64,000 bases of DNA. It comes from Patescibacteria group bacterium (GTDB lineage: Bacteria > Patescibacteriota > Minisyncoccia > Phycocordibacterales > UBA12445). The notes under the pieces were generated by a model that saw only the letters and a program-made list of their open reading frames with translations, searched no databases and was not told the origin of the DNA. Position numbers and translations under genes: made by a program. Below are positions 1,122-51,423 of the stretch, piece by piece. The stretch's first letter is position 1, and the number at the start of each line of letters is the position of its first letter. The stretch is from positions 75,535-139,534 of the forward strand of contig DOAO01000007.1 in NCBI GenBank assembly GCA_003504275.1. Direction: 5' to 3'.

Positions 1122-1762
1122 GCATTTTTAAAAAATATTATAATAGAGATAATGCCGAGTACGGCTCAACCTCTTCCAGAATAAGGAAGATACTTTCATT
1201 TTTTGATGGGATAAAAGGCAAGAAAGTTTTGGATGTCGGTTGTGCGGGAGGGCATCTTGGCACAGAGATAAAAAAACTAGGAAATGAGGTTACCGGAATA
1301 GACATTTCAGATGTTTTGATTAAGGAGGCTGAAAAAGTTTTAGATAAGGCTATCGTCGTAGACGTACAAGAAGAAAATATTCCCTTCAACGAAGGGTATT
1401 TTGATATTGTTATTTTGTCGGAAGTAATAGAGCACCTCTTCTTTCCGGAGATTACTCTTGAAAAAATTAAAAATGTCTTGAAAAAAGACGGAAGGCTCAT
1501 TATTACCACTCCGAACTTACTGGTTTTTTCCAATAGAGTTAGAATATTTTTCGGAAATTTTGAATATACAGAGAAAGGGATTATTATTCCGGAACACATT
1601 CGTTTCTTTACGCATGATTCGCTGATTAAATTTTTAAACAAAAACGGTTTTGAAGTAGTGAGAGAAAATAATATTATTCATCCAAAAATACCAGAATTTT
1701 TGGGCAAGTTATTTCCAAATTTATTCACATACCAGATGGTTATTGAATTTAAATTTAAATAG
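1118..1762 (+). CDS. class I SAM-dependent methyltransferase
   Basis: VLDVGCAGGHLG (GxGxG motif I), D-I-S motif II, ILSEVIEHLFFPE. Overlaps the previous gene by 4 nt (operon). Confidence 0.65.
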   Translation: MSIFKKYYNRDNAEYGSTSSRIRKILSFFDGIKGKKVLDVGCAGGHLGTEIKKLGNEVTGIDISDVLIKEAEKVLDKAIVVDVQEENIPFNEGYFDIVILSEVIEHLFFPEITLEKIKNVLKKDGRLIITTPNLLVFSNRVRIFFGNFEYTEKGIIIPEHIRFFTHDSLIKFLNKNGFEVVRENNIIHPKIPEFLGKLFPNLFTYQMVIEFKFK

Positions 1763-1787
1763 CTATTAAGAATTATAATCTAAGGTA

Positions 1788-2765
1788 ATGTTAAAAATAG
1801 CGGTTATAAATCCTGGTATAGCAGACGGTTTGGCGAGGACCATACTTGATGGGCTCGTTTCTCTTACAAAAAGAGATTCTTCGGTGTCTTTTAAATATGC
1901 CAATACTTTTCCTTACGCCATAGAAGGTCTCGAGGAGAATCAAAGTAAAGACAAAAAAGATTTTATTGATTTTGCAAAAGAGGCTAATCTTATATTTTTT
2001 ATTTGGGCAAAAAGGGATATGGATATCGGTTTGGCAAATGAAATCGGTCTCTGGGATAAAACTATTTTTATAGACGGTTCTGAAATAGGTAAAAACGGAA
2101 GATATAATTTTGAAATTCAGCACAAGATAATAAAGGGAGAGTATTCTGGGAGCGGAAAAATTGACACAGAAATGCTCCATAAATGCCCACTTTATTTTAG
2201 AAGAGAAAAACCCTATAAGGATGGAATTGTTCCTTTTCCGTTTGGAATAGAGAGTCTTTATGTTAAAGATTTTTCTTTAAATACCCCCAAAGATATAGAT
2301 TTCTTTTGTGTTTTTGGACAAGATGAATATCCTTTAATGAGAAGATATTCCAGAGAAATTTTGATTGATTTCTGTAAGAAGAACGGATTTACATGTTTTA
2401 CAGAAAAAACAGATAGAGATAATTTTTATAGAACCCTTGCAAGATCAAAAGTCGGCATTTCTGTTGGTGGGGGAGGATATGACTGCATGCGTTTTTGGGA
2501 GATATTGGGTAATAATTGTCTGATGCTGACCGAAAAAATAGATATTTATGAACCTGATTCAAAAAAGCTTAAATATGATAGGATTTGGCAGTTCAACGAT
2601 CTTTTTGATTTTGAATATCAGTTAGAAAAAATGGGAGAATATTTGAGAAAAGAATACGACCAGTCTAAGTTAAAAGAAGAATATAGAAAGGTAATGTCTG
2701 AGCATTCATCCGAAGCCAGAGTTTTGGAGATTATTGAAAAGGCAAAAGAAATAAAATTATTATAA
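1788..2765 (+). CDS. putative glycosyltransferase (GT-B C-terminal-domain-like)
   Basis: C-terminal region (GISVGGGGYDCMRFWEILGNNCLML) looks like the Glyco_trans_1_2 type fold. Context is a glycosyltransferase operon. Confidence 0.35.
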   Translation: MLKIAVINPGIADGLARTILDGLVSLTKRDSSVSFKYANTFPYAIEGLEENQSKDKKDFIDFAKEANLIFFIWAKRDMDIGLANEIGLWDKTIFIDGSEIGKNGRYNFEIQHKIIKGEYSGSGKIDTEMLHKCPLYFRREKPYKDGIVPFPFGIESLYVKDFSLNTPKDIDFFCVFGQDEYPLMRRYSREILIDFCKKNGFTCFTEKTDRDNFYRTLARSKVGISVGGGGYDCMRFWEILGNNCLMLTEKIDIYEPDSKKLKYDRIWQFNDLFDFEYQLEKMGEYLRKEYDQSKLKEEYRKVMSEHSSEARVLEIIEKAKEIKLL

Positions 2766-2770
2766 TTTCA

Positions 2771-4480
2771 ATGAAGGAAGATAACCTTAAAAATGAATGT
2801 TCTGTTGTAGTCTCATCTTGCGACGCTTTTTCAGATGTTTGGGAGGCATTTTTTACATTATTTTTTAAATATTGGCCTGATTGTCCATTCCCCATTTATC
2901 TTATAAGCGAAACAAAGAAATATCCCGATAACAGGGTAACAACATTAAACATCGGAGAAGATAAAAAATGGGCCACTAACATTAAGAACGCCTTAAAAAG
3001 AGTTAATACTAAAAATATAATTTATTTACAGGAAGATTATTTGCTTGAAAGTAAAGTCAACACAGAAAAAATTATAAATTTGATTAAAATTTTGAGCGAT
3101 AGTGGTGCTGCTTATTTAAAACTCTGTCCATCTCCCGCACCCTATAGAAAGTTCGGCGAATATAAAGATATTGGTGAAATAAAAAAGGGTAGCAATTACA
3201 GCATTTCTTTGCAGGCTGCGATATGGAATAAAAAAATAATGGAGGGTTTGTTGATAGATGGAGAAAGCGGATGGGATATGGAGTTTAAAGGTAGCATTAG
3301 GACCGCGGATATCAAGGAGCCACTTCTTAGCGTTTATAGCAGTGTTTTGAATTATTTTTATGCAACTGCGATAAAGAAAGGGGTATGGTTTTATGATGCA
3401 ATAAAATTATGTGAGAAAGAGGGAATAAAAATAGATAAAACAAAAAGAAGAATTGAAACATTTAATCACTATGTTTTAAGAGTGACAAAATTTTTACACC
3501 TAAAGAATATATTAAAAATTTTCTTATTTAAGGTAAAGAGAAAGATGATTTTAATTAGCAGATTTTCATTCAATTTATATTTATTTTTCAAAAAAAGTAA
3601 ACAAATTAGCGATTTTTATGTAACAAGAAAGACTTTTTTTGAAAATTATGACCTTATAAACAAACAAGATATTTCAAAATTTATAACTCCCCATTGGCAC
3701 GATTTAAATAAAAAATATGAAAATTATCTAAGAATAAAAAACGTACCGGTAAATTTCTTAAGAGACAGGGTAATCGGATACACAATGTTTGTTTCTTCTG
3801 GTGGCGGTGCCATGAAGGCCGAATTAGATTTTTTAGAAAATAAATATTCTAAAGGAGATTTAGGTAAATATTTAGAAGAAGAAGCCGTCGGTTTCCCTAT
3901 AATATTGAGCAGGAAATATCTCTCCTCTCACAATAGTATCCGTCACCTATACCACATAAGTCGCTTTATTTTTAGGACCAATGTGGAAATAAATTCCATA
4001 AAGACGGTTGTTGAGTGGGGAGGAGGATATGGTAATTTTGCTAAAATATTTTTAAGACTTCAGGACAGTCCCCAAAAAACAACTTATGTGATAATAGACA
4101 CCCCACTATTTAGCTGTATTCAGTGGTTATATTTGTCCGTTGTTCTTGGCAAAGATAAGGTTAATTTTGTTAGAAGAGAAAATGATAAGATTGTCTCCGA
4201 AAAGATAAACATCATTCCCCTTGGTTTTGTTGAGAAGGTTAATCTTAAGCCGGATTTATTTGTTTCTACTTGGGCGCTAAGTGAAAGTTCGCCATTCTCT
4301 CAAGATTTTGTTTTAAACAAAAACTTTTTTGGAGCTAAGCATCTTTTGATTGGTTATCAGGAAAGTAACCCATCGCTACCTGATGCGGATAGAATAAATT
4401 TAATCGTTGATGAAAAGAGGAAAGATACAATAAAAGAGATAATAGATTTTATCCCGGGGAATTATTATGTATTTAAATAA
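2771..4480 (+). CDS. hypothetical two-domain protein: N-terminal GT-like domain, C-terminal putative sugar O-methyltransferase-like domain
   Basis: Continuous 569-aa ORF. The N-terminal ~230 aa are W/F-rich and GT-like. A low-complexity AT-rich linker follows. The C-terminus carries VVEWGGGYGNFAKIF (GxGxG SAM-binding-like). Confidence 0.35.
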   Translation: MKEDNLKNECSVVVSSCDAFSDVWEAFFTLFFKYWPDCPFPIYLISETKKYPDNRVTTLNIGEDKKWATNIKNALKRVNTKNIIYLQEDYLLESKVNTEKIINLIKILSDSGAAYLKLCPSPAPYRKFGEYKDIGEIKKGSNYSISLQAAIWNKKIMEGLLIDGESGWDMEFKGSIRTADIKEPLLSVYSSVLNYFYATAIKKGVWFYDAIKLCEKEGIKIDKTKRRIETFNHYVLRVTKFLHLKNILKIFLFKVKRKMILISRFSFNLYLFFKKSKQISDFYVTRKTFFENYDLINKQDISKFITPHWHDLNKKYENYLRIKNVPVNFLRDRVIGYTMFVSSGGGAMKAELDFLENKYSKGDLGKYLEEEAVGFPIILSRKYLSSHNSIRHLYHISRFIFRTNVEINSIKTVVEWGGGYGNFAKIFLRLQDSPQKTTYVIIDTPLFSCIQWLYLSVVLGKDKVNFVRRENDKIVSEKINIIPLGFVEKVNLKPDLFVSTWALSESSPFSQDFVLNKNFFGAKHLLIGYQESNPSLPDADRINLIVDEKRKDTIKEIIDFIPGNYYVFK

Positions 4481-37479: not shown

Positions 37480-37941
37480 ATGGCTACGATACATAGATTT
37501 GAGGATTTGATTTGTTGGAAGAAAGCTCGTGAGCTTACGAAGGAGATATATAAAGCTTTTAAGGATAGTAAAGATCGTGGGCTGAAGGACCAGATTGAAC
37601 GTGCGGCGGTTTCTGTAATGAGCAATATTGCAGAGGGTTTTGAAAGAGGCACTAAACAAGAGTTTCTGAATTATCTTTTTATCGCAAAAGGTTCGGCAGG
37701 AGAAGTAAGATCACAGCTTTATATAGCACTTGATGTTGGTTATTTAAATATTGAAACATTTAAATATTTAAATTCTCTGGCAACGGAAAATTCACGTCTC
37801 ATCCAGAGTTTTACCGAGAAGGTAAGGGGTGGTTCACGTGCGGGAACGCAATTTAAGAAACTAGACAAAAAGGACCCTTTAGAAGAAATTATAAAAGAGA
37901 AGTCCCCAGAGCTTTACGAAAAATTTTACGGAAAAAATTAA
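37480..37941 (+). CDS. four-helix-bundle protein (23S rRNA intervening-sequence-type protein family)
   Basis: MATIHRFEDLICWKKARELTKEIY...SNIAEGFERGTKQEFLNYLFIAKGSAGEVRSQLYIA fits this family. Confidence 0.55.
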   Translation: MATIHRFEDLICWKKARELTKEIYKAFKDSKDRGLKDQIERAAVSVMSNIAEGFERGTKQEFLNYLFIAKGSAGEVRSQLYIALDVGYLNIETFKYLNSLATENSRLIQSFTEKVRGGSRAGTQFKKLDKKDPLEEIIKEKSPELYEKFYGKN

Positions 37942-38158
37942 TAAATTTATAGACGTCCAGCAGGATTAGGTCATATATAATTTTTCTGACGATTAGCAGG
38001 ATTAGGCCACGAGTTACTAATTCGCTTCGCTCATAAGTACTCTCGGCCCCGCCTCAGCTCCCATTCTTGCAGAATGGGTCCCGCTTCCGGCTTTCAAATC
38101 CTGCTGTGGCGCTACAAAACAAAAAACACCCAAATGCTTTCGCATTTGAGGTGTTTGT

Positions 38159-38327
38159 TTTGTGCGCCCAGCAGGATCTTTTCTCTACGAGAACAGTATA
38201 GGTTTCCCATTTTTTCGGATTAAAATCCTCAAAAATAAGGGAGAACCTTTTCAAATCCTGACGCAAGGTAAGCAGTTACCTTGCTTGGGCGCAAGAGAAA
38301 AAACAGGCTAAAGCCTGTTTTTTGTTG
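38159..38327 (-). ncRNA. candidate structured element downstream of tRNA-Lys (trailer element copy 1)
   Basis: Closed by a stem that copies the tRNA-Lys acceptor/3' end (18-nt direct repeat 38159-38177 = 38325-38342). Internal hairpins show compensatory changes relative to copy 2. A hairpin plus T-run terminator separates it from the tRNA. Confidence 0.4.
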
Positions 38328-38400
38328 TGCGCCCAGCAGGATTTGAACCTGCGACCCTCCGCTTAAGAGGCGGTTGCTCTACCAACTGAGCTATGGGCGC
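38328..38400 (-). tRNA. tRNA-Lys (anticodon CTT)
   Basis: Cloverleaf: acceptor GCGCCCA/TGGGCGC, anticodon loop CTCTTAA, T-loop TTCAAAT. No encoded CCA. Confidence 0.85.
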
Positions 38401-38442
38401 TTGATTTGCTGATTTAAAATAACACTTTTAATCTTTTTTTTC

Positions 38443-38609
38443 AATGTGCCCGAGGTGAATCTTCCTCTACGAGGACTGTATAGCTTTCCCATTTATTCAG
38501 AGCAAAGCTCTTCATAAATAAGGGAGAAGCTTTTCGACTCCCTCACGCAGACCAAGCAGTTGGTCTGCTTCGGCATAAAATCAAAACCAAAAGATGGTTT
38601 ATGATTTTG
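38443..38609 (-). ncRNA. candidate structured element downstream of tRNA-Leu (trailer element copy 2)
   Basis: Same architecture as 38159-38327, with a conserved core ...TTCTCCCTTATTT...AAATGGGAAAG/CCTATAC...CTCGTAGAG... . Hairpins vary by paired substitutions (GCAAGGTAA/TTACCTTGC vs GCAGACCAA/TTGGTCTGC; GGATT/AATCC vs AGAGC/GCTCT). Confidence 0.4.
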
Positions 38610-38693
38610 TGCCCAGAGAGGGAGTCGAACCCTCAATCCCTTGCGGGCGACAGATTTTAAGTCTGTAGCGTATACCAATTCCGCCATCTGGGC
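38610..38693 (-). tRNA. tRNA-Leu (anticodon TAA)
   Basis: Acceptor GCCCAGA/TCTGGGC, anticodon loop CTTAAAA, long variable arm, T-loop TTCGACT. Confidence 0.85.
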
Positions 38694-38717
38694 ATTAGAC
38701 CCTTTTTTAGGATCTTG

Positions 38718-38789
38718 AGGCCTGGGGGAGAATCGAACTCCCGCATAACGGTTTTGCAGACCGTCGCTTTACCACTTAGCAACCAGGCC
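38718..38789 (-). tRNA. tRNA-Cys (anticodon GCA)
   Basis: Acceptor GGCCTGG/CCAGGCC, anticodon loop CTGCAAA, T-loop TTCGATT, U73 discriminator. Confidence 0.85.
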
Positions 38790-38794
38790 AATAT

Positions 38795-39145
38795 TTATTT
38801 ATATGCTTGATCAGCTCTGTTCGCTTGGCTTAAAAGCTCATCAATTCTTTGTCTGTGTTTCTCTCCTTTGTCTAATTCAAAATCGAAGAATGGGATAAAT
38901 TTCATATTCCAGTCTTTCTTTACATAGTCACGAAAATCACTTCGTTGTCTCTTTAGGAATTCCAGAGCTCTTTCTTCCCCGCTATCCGGAAGAACCGTAA
39001 AAAGGACCTTGGCCTCCTTCATATCAGGAGAAAGGTCAATGCTCGTTATTGTTATTATCGATTTCTTATTAGAAACTCTCTCCACGAAATCCGCGGCAAG
39101 TTTCATTAAAAGGGATGATATTTTTTCGTTTCGTCTTCCTTGCAT
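38795..39145 (-). CDS. rbfA: ribosome-binding factor A
   Basis: 116 aa with RbfA-like N-terminal sequence. Sits just downstream of infB. Confidence 0.75.
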   Translation of the reverse strand: MQGRRNEKISSLLMKLAADFVERVSNKKSIITITSIDLSPDMKEAKVLFTVLPDSGEERALEFLKRQRSDFRDYVKKDWNMKFIPFFDFELDKGEKHRQRIDELLSQANRADQAYK

Positions 39146-46500: not shown

Positions 46501-46539
46501 TTGAAAATTGAATAAAGGCAGTGGAAACACTGCCTCAAT

Positions 46540-46622
46540 GCGCAGGTGGTAGAGTGGTCAATTACAACAGACTGTAAATCTGTCGGCTTCGGCCTACGAA
46601 GGTTCGAATCCTTCCCTGCGCA
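46540..46622 (+). tRNA. tRNA-Tyr (anticodon GTA)
   Basis: Acceptor GCGCAGG/CCTGCGC, anticodon loop CTGTAAA, long variable arm, T-loop TTCGAAT. Confidence 0.8.
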
Positions 46623-46628
46623 TAACGA

Positions 46629-46655
46629 AAAAGTTCCCGAAAGGGGACTTTTTAG
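46629..46655 (+). terminator. rho-independent terminator after tRNA-Tyr
   Basis: AAGTTCCC-GAAA-GGGGACTT followed by TTTTT. Confidence 0.7.
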
Positions 46656-46890
46656 TTTGCGCAGGAGAAAGCCATTATCCATGGCTTTCGTGAAGGATTC
46701 GAAGCCTGATTGAGTATTTTTTCTAGTTCAGAGAACGAAGAAAAAATCCAATCAGGTTACTGGTCGTGTAACGACCGAAACTCCTTCCCTGATTTTTTAA
46801 CTGCTTCATTCGCGTAAGGATTCGAAAAGCTCCTCTCATAATTTTTAGGATTTTTTAATCCGAAAAAATGGGAAAGCTATATCTGTGTAT
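46656..46890 (+). ncRNA. candidate structured element downstream of tRNA-Tyr (trailer element copy 3), with partial tRNA-Tyr copies
   Basis: Begins GCGCAGG (the tRNA-Tyr 5' acceptor copy). Contains T-arm-like fragments GAAGGATTCGAA and CTCCTTCCCTG. Core GATTCGAAAAGCTCCTCTCATAATTTTTAGGATTTTTTAATCCGAAAAAATGGGAAAGCTATA is near-identical to copies 1 and 2. Confidence 0.4.
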
Positions 46891-46951: not shown

Positions 46952-49900
46952 ATGAAGAAATTTATTGTAGTAATCATCTTGCTCTGTATGAGCGTGGTTT
47001 TTATAAAAAACATCTCTGCTTCTGGTCCAACTTATTTACCTGGGAATATTCTTATAAATGAATTCATGACAAGCACGGACGTCGGAGTTTCACAGTGGTA
47101 TGAATTAATAAATACAACAGAGGATAATATTAATTTGACCGAATGGGTGTTAAGTTCGGCTGTTAATGGTGAAATCAACATTGCGACGATACTCGACGAT
47201 GACACAATACCCGCTTACGGCATTGTGGTAATAGATACAGCTTACAATCCCGCAGATGATTTCGGCGATGTCCTTCAATTAAAAGATCCTACCGCTCAGG
47301 TGATTCACGCGGTTTCTTATGGCGATCAACCGGAGCCAGCTGAGCCAAACCATACAGACGCTCCGACCGTTGGAAGTACGGTTGCTTTAATTTCTGGTGT
47401 ATGGGGTTCTGCCCCTATGCCTACCAAGGGTTGGTTTAATGATGCAATAGATTGGACTTGCGAACAAATCAATGGAATAGATTCACCGGAAGTTCCTCCG
47501 ACACTGTCTTCTGTCGCGACATGCCTTTCTTCTGAAATGAGTCTTGAGACAAATTTGGGAGAAGGGTCGCCGATAAATCCCTCTGCTTTTTCAAGCTTAT
47601 ACTTCAGGATACCTGGTATGGGGATGATAACTTTCAATGACAATCTTAATCTTTCCGATCAAAATACTGTGACGGTTATACGGTCTCTTGCAGACAAACT
47701 TATGATGAGTACGGCTGGAACGGTAGGATTAAATCCTGATGCGTGTGATCCAATGTCTGGCCCTTGTATTGTTCCTGCGCCATCAGTCTTTAAGAACGTT
47801 AACGCAACTGTGGAATTTTATGGAGTAAATGCTCTAGGATTTTATAATGTTCCACCTATTTTGGTTAAGGATGATGAGGGGGTTATAATTCCATCAGATG
47901 ATCCAAGTTACCCCACAATTACTAATCTTTCATATGATGGGGGCCAAAATGATGGAACCGTATATTTGACTACAAACCATTTCACACAGTTTACTCTGGA
48001 TAATAGTGTTTATGTAGACGATGATTTTAGCGGAGATGGATCTGAAGCTAATCCTTTCGCAACGATAGCAGAGGGTGTTGCTAATGTTCCTGAGGGAGGT
48101 ATTGTTCATGTTGCAGCAGGTTCTTATGATGGAAATATTTTAATAGACAGATCGATGACTATTCAGGGGGTGAGTAGTACGACAATTACAGTTACGGCCC
48201 CCCTTGCTTCTCACGGGTTTGATGTAAGTGCGGACAATGTAACAATATCAGGGTTCACAATAACCGGCGCGACGGGTGGTGGGGGAGGGGGAAAGGCCGG
48301 TATAAATATAAATTCTGGCGTAGATAATCTAACGATATCCGATAATATCATAGCAGGGAACATGTATGGAATAAAAACAAAGGGAGCTATCACTGCCCTT
48401 AATGTGCAAAATAATTCCATTAACAATAATTCGTATTATGGTATCTATATTATTAAGGTGGTTGGTGATTTAACGGTTGTTGCCGACTGGACACTACAAA
48501 ATAACTCCTTCGAAAATGATTCTTATAATATTTACAGAGAAGGAACGACTGGTACCTTGAATGCTGAAAATAATTATTGGGGCTGGGACAATAGAGCCTA
48601 TGTGAAAAATTCCATCTACTATGTTAGCAATAATGGAGGTGTGGATTTTGTTCCTTTCTATACTGATGAGGAAAGAACCACCCTATCTGATCTTTATTTC
48701 ACATTTGATGTTGGGGCGGATGAAATGCATACCTACTTTTCGATTCAGGATGCTATTAATGAGGCTGATTGTGAAGCATCGACTACAGGAACAAGTAATA
48801 TAATTACGGTAGGTCCAGGATATTATTCAGAGACAATAAGTATGACAAAATCTGTAGACTTAAGGGGACCTAATTCAAATATCAATCCTATAACGGATGA
48901 GCGCGCTGATGAGGCGATACTGGATGGAGTATTGCCATTAATTCAGATGACTACCAATGGGGTGGCTAACGTAACAATAAACGGATTTAAATTGGTTGGT
49001 GCCACTGATGTGGCCGTTGCTGGAGCCATATACTCCAATAAATTAAATGCACACAACATCACGATTCGCGACAACATTTTTTCTGGTAGTCAGGGGCGAT
49101 CGATCTTTACATCACAAGGAGAAGAGGGGGTGTATCGAAACAATTGGCTTATAACTGAAAATGTTTTTGAGAATGTGGGAAGTGTAGAAGGAGATCCTTT
49201 TCAGGCGGCCATGATGATTCAGAGTATCGAGGGCAGTTCAATAACGAACAATCAGATTGATAACACTTCTTATGGGGGGATTCAATTGGGTCACTCCTCC
49301 TCTACTATTATATCTGGGAATAGTGTATCTAACGTACCACGATCGGGTATTCAGGTCGCCTACAGCACAGGGATTACTGTCACAGGGAACACTATTACGA
49401 ACGCTGGTAATGGCGAAGAAATGGTGGATGTTCGAGGGTTTGGGGTTCATACCGACGACACGACTGAGAATGGAGGCATTACATTTTATAATTATGATCA
49501 GCCAAATATTACCGTCACCAACAATACAATCAGCGGGTCTTACAATGGCATCGCAATCCGCAGTGTGGGTACTTCGGAGTTGGGAAATTTGGGAGAGGAT
49601 ATCCTTATTAACGAGAACAGTATAACGGGTAGTCTTAATTTTGCGGTGGAAAATCTTGCTCCCTCCGGACAGCTTAGCGCTGAGCATAATTACTGGGGAA
49701 GCTCCCTTCCTGATTTTGGAACGATAATGTCTGGTAGTGTTGATTATAATCCTTGGTGGACGACTGCTTCCGGTCCAGATGTTGTTTCCTCTTCTAACAA
49801 AGATATTTCTAGTTTTTCTATTTCCAGTCAAGTGGGTACTACTACGATAAATCAAACTACACATACTGTCTCGATGGTTGTTCCTTTTGGTACAGACGTT

Positions 49901-51121
49901 ACTGCTTTTTCGCCCACAATAACTCACACTGGTTTATTTATTAGTCCATCAGGTGGAACAGCGCAGGACTTTACGACACCACAAACATATACTGTTACCG
50001 CAATTGATTCTTCAACCCAAGAATATACTGTTTCCGTGGAGATTTTGTCTGATACTCAAACAGCTCCAAATGATTCAGGAAGCGCTACTGCCAGTTCCAC
50101 AAAACCTCAAGTTGTAATTAAAAATCCGACACAGGAGGTAAGTGTCTCAATAGAAAGCGGAACAATCGAGCCATCTATTGATGTGAGTGCATTTATCACT
50201 GATGGGGTTGGAGATATACCAAAAATTACTATTACATCTGCCAATGCGGGAAATGCTGTTATCTCAATTCCGCCTACGACAATTACAAGTGCGAGTACTA
50301 CATGGAATGGAATTCTTGCCGCGCCTACAGTAACCTCTGTTACTTTGCCGGAAACCTCAGGAGAAACAAAGACATTAAGTACTGCAATCGAAGTCGGATT
50401 TTCGGGAGTCAAATTGTCTTTTGATAAAGGAGTTAGGATTTTATTACCAAGTCAAGCTGGTAAAAGAGTGGGATATATTAGGACTGGAATAGAATTTACT
50501 GAGATAACCGCCACATGTTCTTCTGATTCTCAATCGGCTGGAGATGCTCTTGTTGCAGATGGTGATTGTAAAATCGATGTTGGCAGTGATTTAGTTATCT
50601 GGACGAAGCATTTTACAAGTTTTGCGTCTTATACTCAGACGACAAATACAACAACACCTTCTTCGGGTGGAGGTGGTATTGCAGGAAGTGGACCTACGGC
50701 AGTCGGTTACGTGGTGACTTATCCCCCTAGTCTGGTTCAATTAGCGCCTAAACAAATGTCAGAAATGACAATAGAAGAATTGAAGGCTGAGATATATAGA
50801 CTGACAGTATTGCTTCAAAGTCTCCGTACTCAAATAGAGCCACTAATCATTCGTCCATATGGTTTCGCTGTAAATTTAGCATTCGGTTCAAAGAATGAGG
50901 ATGTGAGAAATTTGCAAAAAGTTTTAAACAGCGATCTGGACACTGCGGTTGCACTCTCTGGGGCAGGATCAAGCGGGAATGAAACAAATTTTTTTGGAAC
51001 AGCTACAAGGGTGGCGGTGTTGAAATTTCAAAAGAAGTACGGTATTGCGCAGACTGGATTTGTAGGGCCCTTGACCAGGGCAAAATTACAGGAACTGTTC
51101 GGAACACATATAAATAACTAG
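46952..51121 (+). CDS. large secreted surface protein: signal peptide, lamin-tail-like domain, parallel beta-helix repeats, C-terminal putative peptidoglycan-binding domain
   Basis: N-terminal signal peptide MKKFIVVIILLCMSVVFIKNISA. LTD-like ILINEFMTS...WYELINTTEDNINLTEWVL. Many right-handed beta-helix (PbH1-like) repeats. C-terminal PG_binding-like region GTATRVAVLKFQKKYGIAQTGFVGPLTRAKL. Confidence 0.6.
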   Translation: MKKFIVVIILLCMSVVFIKNISASGPTYLPGNILINEFMTSTDVGVSQWYELINTTEDNINLTEWVLSSAVNGEINIATILDDDTIPAYGIVVIDTAYNPADDFGDVLQLKDPTAQVIHAVSYGDQPEPAEPNHTDAPTVGSTVALISGVWGSAPMPTKGWFNDAIDWTCEQINGIDSPEVPPTLSSVATCLSSEMSLETNLGEGSPINPSAFSSLYFRIPGMGMITFNDNLNLSDQNTVTVIRSLADKLMMSTAGTVGLNPDACDPMSGPCIVPAPSVFKNVNATVEFYGVNALGFYNVPPILVKDDEGVIIPSDDPSYPTITNLSYDGGQNDGTVYLTTNHFTQFTLDNSVYVDDDFSGDGSEANPFATIAEGVANVPEGGIVHVAAGSYDGNILIDRSMTIQGVSSTTITVTAPLASHGFDVSADNVTISGFTITGATGGGGGGKAGININSGVDNLTISDNIIAGNMYGIKTKGAITALNVQNNSINNNSYYGIYIIKVVGDLTVVADWTLQNNSFENDSYNIYREGTTGTLNAENNYWGWDNRAYVKNSIYYVSNNGGVDFVPFYTDEERTTLSDLYFTFDVGADEMHTYFSIQDAINEADCEASTTGTSNIITVGPGYYSETISMTKSVDLRGPNSNINPITDERADEAILDGVLPLIQMTTNGVANVTINGFKLVGATDVAVAGAIYSNKLNAHNITIRDNIFSGSQGRSIFTSQGEEGVYRNNWLITENVFENVGSVEGDPFQAAMMIQSIEGSSITNNQIDNTSYGGIQLGHSSSTIISGNSVSNVPRSGIQVAYSTGITVTGNTITNAGNGEEMVDVRGFGVHTDDTTENGGITFYNYDQPNITVTNNTISGSYNGIAIRSVGTSELGNLGEDILINENSITGSLNFAVENLAPSGQLSAEHNYWGSSLPDFGTIMSGSVDYNPWWTTASGPDVVSSSNKDISSFSISSQVGTTTINQTTHTVSMVVPFGTDVTAFSPTITHTGLFISPSGGTAQDFTTPQTYTVTAIDSSTQEYTVSVEILSDTQTAPNDSGSATASSTKPQVVIKNPTQEVSVSIESGTIEPSIDVSAFITDGVGDIPKITITSANAGNAVISIPPTTITSASTTWNGILAAPTVTSVTLPETSGETKTLSTAIEVGFSGVKLSFDKGVRILLPSQAGKRVGYIRTGIEFTEITATCSSDSQSAGDALVADGDCKIDVGSDLVIWTKHFTSFASYTQTTNTTTPSSGGGGIAGSGPTAVGYVVTYPPSLVQLAPKQMSEMTIEELKAEIYRLTVLLQSLRTQIEPLIIRPYGFAVNLAFGSKNEDVRNLQKVLNSDLDTAVALSGAGSSGNETNFFGTATRVAVLKFQKKYGIAQTGFVGPLTRAKLQELFGTHINN

Positions 51122-51343
51122 ATAAATAACCCCTTCTCAGGATTCCGCTCCGTCATACCTGGAGTTTCCCTTACTGGCATAAGGAGTCCTTGTGGATATA
51201 TGTGACTGTATGGAATGGACTAAGGTCATACACCCAATCCCCGCCCTCCTAAGTAGATAAATTGGGTAATTGGAGGAGGGAGTTTATGGTGGAGTTTTGA
51301 TTATTAATAAAATAATACCACTTTCCAGACAGGAGTATTTTAT

Positions 51344-51372
51344 TTGACTCTTTGTTATTATGAGTGTATATT
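51344..51372 (+). promoter_or_regulatory. sigma70-like promoter upstream of def
   Basis: TTGACT, 17-nt spacer, TATATT. Confidence 0.45.
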
Positions 51373-51423
51373 CATAATATTATATAGGCGGGTTTTGAGA
51401 TATTTTTAAACAAAATAGTAAAA

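Follow-up and report, generated by a model that had tools for sequence, protein, structure and literature searches.

What are the structured units that stand directly behind two transfer RNA (tRNA) genes of a Patescibacteria group bacterium, and in what form do they act? The stretch of contig DOAO01000007.1 that we analyzed (64 kb, hereafter the window; unit coordinates are window positions, and L-numbers such as L015 or L115 denote other loci sampled) carries, behind tRNA-Lys and behind tRNA-Leu, a short hairpin and then a unit on the same strand (Leu unit, 38575-38445; Lys unit, 38292-38163), an arrangement that an earlier note on this DNA had described and that our analysis bears out. We find that the units belong to a real family for which we found no prior description. 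Its most distinctive feature is a tRNA-specific clamp, made of an inverted and a direct copy of the last ~20 nt of the tRNA, set round a core that is invariant across the phylum. The units may well be DNA-level fold-back modules at tRNA gene 3' ends, rearranged by recombination within the tRNA-end copies, and this is the reading that we tentatively favor.

We use O for the tRNA segment from T-loop to discriminator (approximately positions 54-73), O' for its reverse complement, X for the core, and S for the spacer together with O' (and with a hairpin, H). Each unit has the order O', X, O, and in its closing helix the 3' strand is a direct copy of O and the 5' strand is O'. In the type A core, a three-way junction, GAAAAG is followed by a long hairpin (P3), then by CUAUACUG, and then by P4, whose 5-bp stem carries a GUA triloop. 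The Leu and Lys units have in common a near-identical basal half of P3, the junction CTATAC(T/A)G, and a 9-bp H with a CTGC loop upstream; the shared core quoted in the earlier note is present as quoted. The length of ~170 nt given there is approached (~165 nt) only when the preceding spacer hairpin is counted, while the structured unit itself is ~130 nt long. The exact 18-nt direct repeat described for Lys, TTGTGCGCCCAGCAGGAT, lies at 38160-38177 and 38325-38342. The statement that each closing stem copies the acceptor/3' end of its own tRNA thus stands for Lys, but the Leu unit has only a degenerate copy of the tRNA-Leu end, and the statement applies to the 3' arm alone, as the 5' arm corresponds in reverse complement to tRNA positions ~54-73 and does not copy the 5' acceptor strand. 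The features of the locus are as follows.

38789-38717, minus strand: tRNA-Cys (ARAGORN, Rfam)
38609-38693, minus strand: tRNA-Leu(taa) (ARAGORN, Rfam); its last ~20 nt, from T-loop to discriminator, are the segment copied by the downstream unit
38576-38608, minus strand: AT-rich palindromic spacer hairpin between tRNA-Leu and the Leu unit, part of a long palindrome with the tRNA 3' end and O'
38445-38575, minus strand: Leu unit, type A (covariance model 138 bits, E = 2e-33)
38575-38569, minus strand: degenerate acceptor-like 5' arm of the Leu unit
38568-38547, minus strand: hairpin H of the Leu unit
38544-38536, minus strand: arm T5ext of the Leu unit, GAGGGAGTC, exact reverse complement of tRNA-Leu GACTCCCTC (9/9)
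38535-38463, minus strand: GAAAAG, P3, CTATAC, and P4 of the Leu unit
38460-38445, minus strand: degenerate copy of the tRNA-Leu 3' end in the Leu unit
38416-38444, minus strand: promoter-like site for tRNA-Lys (TTGAAA, 17 nt, TG-TATTTT), directly 3' of the Leu unit
38327-38400, minus strand: tRNA-Lys(ctt) (ARAGORN, Rfam), O donor of the Lys array
38293-38326, minus strand: palindromic terminator-like spacer (A-tract, CAGGC/GCCTG hairpin, T-tract), its pairing continuous with that between the tRNA-Lys 3' end and O'
38163-38292, minus strand: Lys unit, type A (covariance model 134 bits)
38292-38286, minus strand: A5 of the Lys unit, GCGCCCA
38284-38263, minus strand: hairpin H of the Lys unit
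38260-38253, minus strand: T5ext of the Lys unit, CAGGATTT
38252-38247, 38246-38201, and 38200-38194, minus strand: GAAAAG, P3, and TATACTG of the Lys unit
38193-38181, minus strand: P4 of the Lys unit, TTCTC-GTA-GAGAA
38177-38163, minus strand: O copy of the Lys unit, ATCCTGCTGGGCGCA, which with CAA (38162-38160) makes the exact 18-nt repeat of 38342-38325
38117-38159, minus strand: second palindromic terminator, between the Lys type A and type B units, terminator-like on both strands
37995-38113, minus strand: type B unit after the Lys unit, with clamp AGCGCCA, CAGCAGGATTTGAA ... TAATCCTGCT and insert GCCGGAAGCGGGACCCATTCTGCAAGAATGGGAGCTGAGGCGGGGCCGAG...CTCGTGGCC
37957-37968, minus strand: partial copy of the 3' strand of the tRNA-Lys T-arm (TAATCCTGCTGG) at the array end, ~15 nt from the stop codon of a convergent four-helix-bundle gene

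ARAGORN and the Rfam tRNA model call four tRNA genes in the window. The core motifs occur in it three times, each time adjoining a tRNA, and nowhere else; the motif GGATTYGAAAAGSTYCTC would be expected 0.43 times by chance.

The folds of both units are far more stable than those of shuffled sequences when computed as RNA (Lys, z = -6.2; Leu, z = -5.3). The three hairpin differences that the earlier note had read as compensatory are real and fall in predicted helices: H is closed by GCAAGGTAA/TTACCTTGC in one window copy and by GCAGACCAA/TTGGTCTGC in the other, the P3 tip by GGATT/AATCC or AGAGC/GCTCT, and one pair at the P3 base by G-C or C-G. In an alignment of 39 copies (A2), 94.4% of cells pair, compared with 74.8% after shuffling; 23 of 34 pairs have changed on both sides, and the covariation score is 0.507, against 0.149 for shuffled alignments (0 of 500 shuffles) and 0.06 to 0.11 for slid partners. 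Covariation extends to all five pairs of P4 and all nine of H, and the one pair that flips in the otherwise invariant base of P3 is G-C in 24 sequences and C-G in 15. Because compensation between positions 56 nt apart on one strand requires that strand to fold on itself, the selected object is a folded single strand, be it RNA or DNA, and the earlier suggestion of selection on structure rather than sequence is upheld with the larger set of copies. G.U pairs are scarce in these helices, making up 6 of 546 pairs in H and P4 compared with 33 of 648 in the acceptor and T stems of tRNAs from the same loci (Fisher p = 6e-5). Two units of one Saccharibacteria metagenome-assembled genome (MAG), L101 5053-5193 and L107 106-246, share a compensated P3 variant in which UUCCGAU.../...AUCGGAA replaces UUUUUGA.../...GAAAAAA; concerted evolution or co-evolution with a trans-acting factor could account for it.

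We then looked at how widely the family is distributed. A gapped core pattern recovered 16 true copies in GTDB genomes, all of them Patescibacteria (Saccharibacteria, Taylorbacteria, Vogelbacteria, Paceibacterota, and MAGs), and 27 further copies in metagenome contigs; an initial genome-wide pattern had been too loose, with ~98 of its 114 matches being chance occurrences in coding DNA of unrelated phyla, which were filtered out. A covariance model (R1) built on 39 copies gave, over 41 loci, 56 matches at E < ~3e-4 and 60 at E <= 0.01, and found units behind other tRNAs, as the earlier note had proposed checking. The ~60 copies known to us are all from Patescibacteria. A family member follows 36 of the 52 tRNAs that have enough downstream sequence, 3 to 45 nt 3' and always on the same strand, a census biased by the use of the element to find the loci in the first place. 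Among the remaining tRNAs (14), seven are followed by other subtypes of the O', X, O form, two stand directly before another tRNA, and seven have nothing. The tRNAs that carry units represent at least 12 identities (Leu, Lys, Tyr, Glu, Ser, Arg, Pro, Trp, Asn, Ile, Gly, Thr, and Cys). Searches of Rfam 15 (4227 models), with the window at the gathering threshold and 37800-38900 at E <= 10, returned only weak chance matches to microRNA and plastid models, in agreement with the earlier failure to place the units in a known RNA family, and the units gave no tRNA match in ARAGORN or with Rfam RF00005, even at E <= 10. Set against the tRNA cloverleaf, they have one 9-bp hairpin in place of the D and anticodon arms and the core in place of the T-loop.

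The loci are old. The gene order IF-2, RbfA, tRNA-Cys, tRNA-Leu, unit is found in the window, L019, and L015, with IF-2 of L019 and L015 being 48% and 43% identical, respectively, to that of the window, and the order ClpB, tRNA-Tyr, units is found in the window, L026, and L139 (ClpB, 67% identity). Between orthologous units every stem differs and the core is kept. Two copies from the same genome resemble each other no more than copies taken from different classes do, and there is thus no sign of recent bursts. Neighboring genes are mostly housekeeping ones, including those for Mur ligases, ClpB, RuvA, and proteins with EF-Tu domains. The units are old chromosomal residents and not recent insertions of an integrase-borne element.

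The two arms of the clamp relate to the tRNA in different ways. The O copy of a unit is often identical to the tRNA end over 10 to 24 nt, with exact repeats in most copies, and in L116 (24 nt), L119, L139, and L107 the identity reaches into the trailer or even covers whole spacers; since it extends into nonfunctional trailer sequence, it is a signature of DNA duplication or recombination. O', in turn, always ends 3' in ...TCGAA, the palindromic T-loop sequence. It is usually interrupted by H at the junction of its acceptor and T-stem parts, is continuous in some subtypes, and runs past the T-stem into the tRNA-specific loop bases 57-60, such that TTCAAAT of tRNA-Lys is matched by ATTTGAA and TTCGACT of tRNA-Leu by AGTCGAA. 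The 9 nt 5' of GAAAAG match the tRNA at a mean of 8.2 of 9 positions, and 19 of 31 arms are perfect. O' is more complementary to the tRNA's own 3' end than to the O copy of the unit in 21 cases and less so in none. For G.U pairs of the tRNA stem, the matching base in the unit's 5' arm pairs with the 3' strand in Watson-Crick fashion in 10 reliable cases and is the tRNA's own 5' base in 3, indicating that the clamp repeats the 3' strand of the tRNA in inverted form and does not copy both tRNA strands.

O' lies 30 to 50 nt from O, and the two form an inverted-copy pair able to anneal in a single strand. The spacer is itself palindromic; tRNA end, spacer, and O' make up one long hairpin with H as a side branch, and O' can therefore pair with O on either side. 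Folded as DNA, this palindrome reaches -36.4 kcal/mol (z = -10.7) for the window Lys locus (38349-38251) and -33.9 kcal/mol (z = -10.4) for the Leu locus (38631-38534). In L132 it has 41 continuous bp, the H branch, and 12 bp more (z = -18), and overall the z scores range from -10 to -18, with pairing far beyond what a terminator requires. Spacers between tRNA and unit resemble bidirectional terminators in 24 of 31 cases, and no promoter-like site was found 5' of the Leu or Lys unit. The clamp helix has 7 + 9 bp (16 bp) with a side branch and no T-loop, and the discriminator and one to three trailer bases are often paired. In predicted folds the inner clamp is closed in 30 of 39 units and the acceptor-like part in 27 of 39, being missing or weak in the other 12. 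A 14-nt insertion, AAGCGTACTC(G/A)CGG, recurs within the copy of the T-arm 3' strand at the L029 unit ends (70-95 and 960-985) and at L015 5765-5790, and many other units have only an extra AC at this position (GAA-AC-TCC); the insertion may represent a footprint or a mini-module.

Units also occur in tandem, with an array grammar of tRNA(O), S, X, O, S, X, O, S in which cores of types A, B, and C are interchangeable in identical sockets. The Lys array of the window runs from a type A core to type B and on to two further partial O copies. Near tRNA-Tyr, the third copy noted earlier (46656-46890) does belong to the family, but it is composite, with a divergent complete member followed by a truncated core copy:

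46539-46623, plus strand: tRNA-Tyr(gta) (ARAGORN, Rfam), O donor of the Tyr array
46624-46658, plus strand: terminator-like palindromic spacer 3' of tRNA-Tyr
46659-46791, plus strand: Tyr unit, divergent member of type C (covariance model 59 bits, E = 3e-13), made up of A5 GCGCAGG, H (46667-46689), GAAGGATTCGAA, a different long P3, TTACTG, P4 GGTCG-TGTAA-CGACC, and CTCCTTCCCTG, with a truncated 3' acceptor strand
46792-46881, plus strand: truncated type A copy with an H remnant, GGATTCGAAAAG, and P3, ending at CTATA, without P4 and the tRNA-end copy, and with a promoter-like site and the gene for a surface protein of 1389 aa behind it

The order of cores differs among relatives, as the window Tyr array has C and then truncated A while L026 has A, then C, then a half-unit. 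The type B module (motif ...GGGAGCTGAGGCGGGGCCGAGAGTACTTA...TAGTAACTCGTGGCC) has the same tRNA-end clamp and no H hairpin; its insert is also found behind other tRNAs in L115 (4060-4215), L121, L126, and L137, and Rfam yielded no match to the module, nor did viral contigs yield a true copy of it. In L119, the run of O, spacer, O', and H is exactly duplicated on both sides of one core, and the second copy stops right after GGATTCGA; terminal half-units likewise stop exactly after TTCGA. In L019, a unit stands between tRNA-Cys and tRNA-Leu, which adjoin each other in the window and in L015.

Some arrays bracket genes. In L115, the order behind tRNA-Asn is a type A unit with arms suited to another allele of that tRNA, a 2.7-kb segment, and a type B unit, at whose end, 3 kb away from the tRNA, 18 nt exactly repeat the tRNA-Asn end of L115. 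This 2.7-kb island (1500-3960) between unit arrays encodes an AAA_21 (AbiEii-like) ATPase and two small unknown proteins. In L029, accessory open reading frames (ORFs) for a PEMT/ICMT methyltransferase, a GNAT acetyltransferase, and an unknown product are separated by type A units and O-like repeats. Neither the L115 nor the L029 island contains an integrase. A further element, type D, is a ~45-nt T-arm-like repeat (...GGTTCCAACATCGTCCCA.. with an acceptor-3'-like tail) located 3' of small accessory ORFs (L029 685-730, 1435-1480, and 2008-2045; L111 3432-3446; L134 2581-2595; L115 ~3975-4010). A spacer and unit come next in four of these six instances, and the three in L029 have the look of a cassette array.

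On the reading that we favor, a module would comprise a spacer hairpin, O' (often split by H), the conserved hairpin core X, and a direct O copy. When the DNA is single stranded or extruded, O' would anneal with O on either side, its partner being either, across the spacer, the end of the tRNA itself or, across the core, the O of the unit, and this pairing would rebuild a duplex replica of the tRNA gene 3' end with the conserved structure as a cap. The folded form would then be the substrate of a recombinase encoded elsewhere in the genome, by analogy with integron attC sites and the fold-back attP of CTX phage. By strand exchange within O copies, modules and now and then gene cargo would be inserted, duplicated, shuffled, or excised precisely, and the tRNA would never be damaged; the crossover would lie inside O, with module boundaries right after ...TTCGA. 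That the folded species is DNA, that a recombinase acts in trans, and where the crossover falls are points that we infer from the sequences. A bolder version, which we regard as possible but doubtful, is an integron-like system of Patescibacteria, in which recombination sites would be fold-back single-stranded DNA (ssDNA) replicas of tRNA 3' ends with TTCGAA as the core site, the conserved hairpin core would be the module recognized by protein, and a host recombinase acting in trans would shuffle small cassettes, and occasional defense or surface-protein genes, behind almost any tRNA gene and never inactivate it.

How well does a DNA-level module explain the data compared with its rivals? It fits best with the arm that inverts the tRNA 3' strand, the depletion of G.U, the long palindrome, the identity that runs into the trailer, the array grammar, the cargo, and the terminator-like spacers with no promoter. 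Several observations weigh against it. No recombinase is linked to the units or present among the families listed for the window, and an integrase domain (PF00589) is found in only 2 of 146 neighbor ORFs, XerC/D-like by look and 2.5 to 8 kb from units. IMG/VR has no match to the type A core and only chance matches to the type B pattern, and INPHARED phages and PLSDB plasmids have no matches at all. The loci are ancient and syntenic, and a ~45-nt core that is near-invariant across classes whose IF-2 is <50% identical is the pattern expected of a housekeeping RNA. The sense strand folds more stably than the antisense strand in 32 of 39 units (mean of -53.4 versus -50.3 kcal/mol, p = 3e-5). In L019, 16 nt separate the end of the unit from tRNA-Leu, and as neither a promoter nor a terminator was detected there, the unit should belong to the Cys-Leu precursor; judging by this position, the copy is almost certainly transcribed. 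The 10-to-3 count of Watson-Crick replacements at G.U positions is not significant alone (p = 0.09), gene conversion swapping alleles could be another cause of the low G.U, and an empty socket, with O' abutting O and no core, was not seen, as no TCGA-centered palindrome with arms >=8 occurs in 42 sequences. Two RNA readings, the main rivals, draw on such points and are together a serious possibility. One, doubtful though not far-fetched, is a trans-acting noncoding RNA (ncRNA) on a tRNA-derived scaffold, which would be read through from the tRNA promoter, cut out by enzymes recognizing the tRNA-like clamp, and folded into an acceptor-like stem, H, an extended T-stem, and the P3/P4 three-way junction, with the core binding a protein or ligand. 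Strong covariation with conserved junctions and variable helices is the classic pattern of a functional RNA, every tRNA-linked copy is on the tRNA strand, and the strand difference in stability, the deep synteny with its near-invariant core, the mostly housekeeping neighbors, the L019 unit within a tRNA operon, and the P3 variant shared by L101 and L107, which suggests co-evolution with a trans-acting factor, all point the same way. Of the earlier note's option of an undescribed tRNA-linked ncRNA, the co-orientation, the deep syntenic conservation, and at least one copy that must be co-transcribed thus stand, while the near-absence of G.U, the lack of a promoter, and a palindromic terminator-like hairpin before 24 of 31 copies go against it. 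As a tRNA mimic the unit is poor, with the T-loop replaced, a helix of 16 and not 12 bp, discriminator and trailer often paired, and the acceptor-like stem missing or weak in 12 of 39 copies and the inner clamp in 9 of 39. Pairing alone requires neither that the arms be identical to the adjoining tRNA nor that they be Watson-Crick where the tRNA has G.U, and the arrays, truncated copies, and bracketed cargo are left unexplained. The other RNA reading, which we consider unlikely, is a cis-acting element of the tRNA 3' trailer, serving insulation or processing (a bidirectional terminator and exonuclease block) or as a switch in which O' pairs alternatively, with arrays arising secondarily by unequal crossing-over between repeated tRNA ends. 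The fixed position 3 to 45 nt behind the tRNA, the better fit of O' to the tRNA's own 3' end (21 better, 0 worse), spacers like bidirectional terminators between convergent genes, and conservation at syntenic tRNA loci would all suit a role in tRNA expression. Yet 7 of the 52 tRNAs lack any unit, the same isoacceptor has one in some lineages and none in others, and a terminator or insulator needs neither a 45-nt core invariant across a phylum nor several alternative cores; moreover, pairing of O' with the tRNA 3' half would compete with tRNA folding, and the G.U depletion applies here too.

The remaining rivals concern DNA of other kinds. Palindromic repeats that are purely selfish, of the repetitive extragenic palindromic (REP), miniature inverted-repeat transposable element (MITE), or Rickettsia palindromic element (RPE) kind, would spread by a transposase or by fold-back replication errors and have no host function. 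There are indeed several copies per genome, with at least three in 64 kb, that are palindromic, hairpin rich, and noncoding, truncated and rearranged copies exist, an IS30-like transposase stands beside the L139 array, and compensatory changes can occur in selfish DNA, as they do in Rickettsia palindromic elements. We nevertheless find this account rather improbable: the arms are locus specific and copy the local tRNA instead of being fixed terminal repeats, no pattern of target-site duplication was seen, copies within a genome are not closer than those across classes, and the family is conserved across the phylum at syntenic loci. Least probable, and very much so, is an origin of the units as attL/attR scars, now decaying, from classical integrase-borne elements (prophages or integrative islands) formerly integrated in these tRNA genes. 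Such integrations have direct repeats of the tRNA 3' end as their hallmark, repeats accrete in tandem, and L115 has a 3-kb island between exact repeats; but no integrase adjoins any of the ~60 copies, most segments between repeats are only ~165 nt, classical att sites have no inverted arm, and neither a covarying structure nor an invariant core would persist in scars while IF-2 diverged to 43 to 48% identity. With the few and distant integrase domains, the empty viral and plasmid collections, and the age and synteny of the loci, the att-site option of the earlier note is not supported if taken literally as attL/attR remnants; a DNA-level recombination role of another form, with a fold-back site built of one inverted and one direct tRNA-end copy, fits best.

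Other identities were considered and rejected. A ribozyme, riboswitch, or T-box finds no Rfam match, and by eye the units are unlike the hammerhead, twister, and pistol cores. Origin as a tRNA pseudogene by duplication does not fit a 5' arm that is the reverse complement of the 3' strand, reaches T-loop bases 57-60, and turns tRNA G.U pairs into Watson-Crick ones. Insertion of the core into a pre-existing palindrome or T-loop was dismissed on the same absence of TCGA-centered palindromes in the 42 sequences. A guide RNA (TnpB/IscB omega RNA or IS110 bridge RNA) came into consideration because a 16- to 20-nt tRNA-identical segment lies 3' of a scaffold; against this, the segment is masked by pairing with its own complement, and there is no linked gene for a nuclease or recombinase. 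Finally, what looked like a ~3-kb insertion splitting the Leu unit of L015 is not one, as the unit only has extra hairpins and the 3 kb consists of ordinary Mur-ligase and FemAB-like genes.

Several features lie near the arrays or elsewhere in the window. The four-helix-bundle protein convergent with the Lys array (37480-37941, plus strand), which may be cargo of the array, falls into PF05635 (E = 2e-34), the family of 23S rRNA intervening-sequence proteins; this family includes the Avd proteins of diversity-generating retroelements (DGRs). A retron or DGR RNA was considered as an identity for the units and set aside, no reverse transcriptase having been noticed near the gene. Giant surface proteins with a C-terminal peptidoglycan-binding domain abut arrays at two unrelated loci (window 46952-51121 and L111 3-3395, both plus strand). 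Directly downstream of the tRNA-Tyr array of L139 is the IS30-like transposase (HTH_38 + rve; 1626-2627, minus strand). The 300-nt intergenic region 3' of the 1389-aa surface-protein gene (51122-51423) contains GC-richer, apparently self-complementary stretches such as CCCGCCCTCC...GGAGGAGGGAG, and Rfam has no match to it. At the other end of the window, positions 1-30000 hold a long same-strand cluster with eight S-adenosylmethionine (SAM) methyltransferase ORFs, glycosyltransferases, two asparagine synthase-like proteins, radical SAM proteins, and NeuB, which is probably a surface-glycan locus.

A full-text literature search found no description of the unit family, and the closest paper, on group I introns within the tRNA genes of Patescibacteria, does not mention these units (PMC13011429). 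The family is large, ancient, strongly constrained, and invisible to current annotation. It adjoins a large share of the sampled tRNA genes in a phylum whose genomes are very small and which accounts for a large part of bacterial diversity. Its design is unusual, with arms rewritten for each tRNA round an invariant core, and we found no counterpart in Rfam or in the literature search. If the unit is a recombination site, it would show how these reduced bacteria, which scavenge DNA, can gain and rearrange genes safely at tRNA genes that are essential and present as single copies, and the integron-like version, if true, would amount to a site-specific recombination platform of a new class, in organisms reliant on DNA uptake. 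If it is RNA, it would represent a new and abundant class of tRNA-coupled RNA with a natural "tRNA scaffold." In either case the covariance model lets annotators mark unit regions and helps to avoid miscalling them as tRNA fragments or att sites.

By their defining features the units are not tRNAs, members of any Rfam family, classical att sites, integron attC sites, or REP/MITE repeats, and they resemble several of these in part. Among tRNA-like RNAs (viral tRNA-like structures, mascRNA, herpesvirus tRNA-microRNA-encoded RNAs, YrlA, and synthetic tRNA scaffolds), an acceptor/T-arm minihelix stem likewise holds a foreign structured domain, and some adjoin or are fused with a tRNA transcription unit; the units, unlike these, have no T-loop or elbow and no D or anticodon arm, their discriminator is often paired, and their arms are strictly Watson-Crick to the 3' strand. 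Nor do they have the 12-bp minihelix with elbow and unpaired discriminator that marks tRNA mimics for RNase P, RNase Z, and the CCA enzyme. REP sequences and bacterial interspersed mosaic elements (with their REP-associated tyrosine transposases), Rickettsia palindromic elements, and MITEs are also short, multicopy, hairpin-forming, and noncoding, often lie at gene 3' ends, may also serve as terminators, and are reported to show compensation, but they are restricted to a species or genus, have fixed ends, and are not coupled to tRNAs, whereas the arms of the units are specific to each tRNA and the core crosses classes. Non-autonomous palindrome-associated elements of the IS200/IS605 type have subterminal hairpins and insert 3' of a fixed 4- to 5-nt target, without terminal inverted repeats or target-site duplications. 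The core of the units is made of hairpins and always starts right after ...TTCGA(A); no empty target was seen, and no TnpA or TnpB nearby.

Other parallels are with sites of recombination. The units share with classical att sites at tRNA genes the direct repeat of the tRNA end, but they have no integrase inside and no free form. In the tycheposons of Prochlorococcus and the cis-mobilizable elements related to streptococcal integrative and conjugative elements, direct repeats of tRNA 3' ends bound successive segments behind an intact tRNA, with degenerate array members and occasional accessory or defense cargo; those elements are kilobases long and defined by tyrosine or serine recombinase genes, and they have neither an inverted tRNA-end arm nor a covarying core. 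The fold-back attP of CTX and other integrative mobile elements exploiting Xer has, like the units, two inverted copies of the host target tens of nucleotides apart, which anneal as ssDNA into a mimic of the site for a host recombinase acting in trans, and in the related pdif modules of Acinetobacter, sites alternate in orientation between small modules. For the units, the mimicked target would be a tRNA 3' end, different for each tRNA, and not dif, and they are ancient chromosomal residents without phage or plasmid genes; no dif-like sequence was recognized at the units, and the XerC/D-like genes of two loci are unlinked. From integron attC sites and the clusters of attC sites lacking integron integrases (CALINs), the units differ in having a variable stem base (a tRNA copy ending in TTCGAA) and a conserved center, the reverse of attC, in lacking RYYYAAC/GTTRRRY boxes, in being anchored on a tRNA gene and not on attI, and in "cassettes" that are mostly 70 to 100 nt and noncoding; no IntI-type integrase was found among the neighbor ORFs. 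Like attC sites, though, they are imperfect palindromes that would act as folded single strands, with compensation reflecting selection on structure and one site per cassette in arrays; cassettes can be added, lost, and reordered, strand and orientation are fixed, and the recombinase need not adjoin the sites on which it acts.

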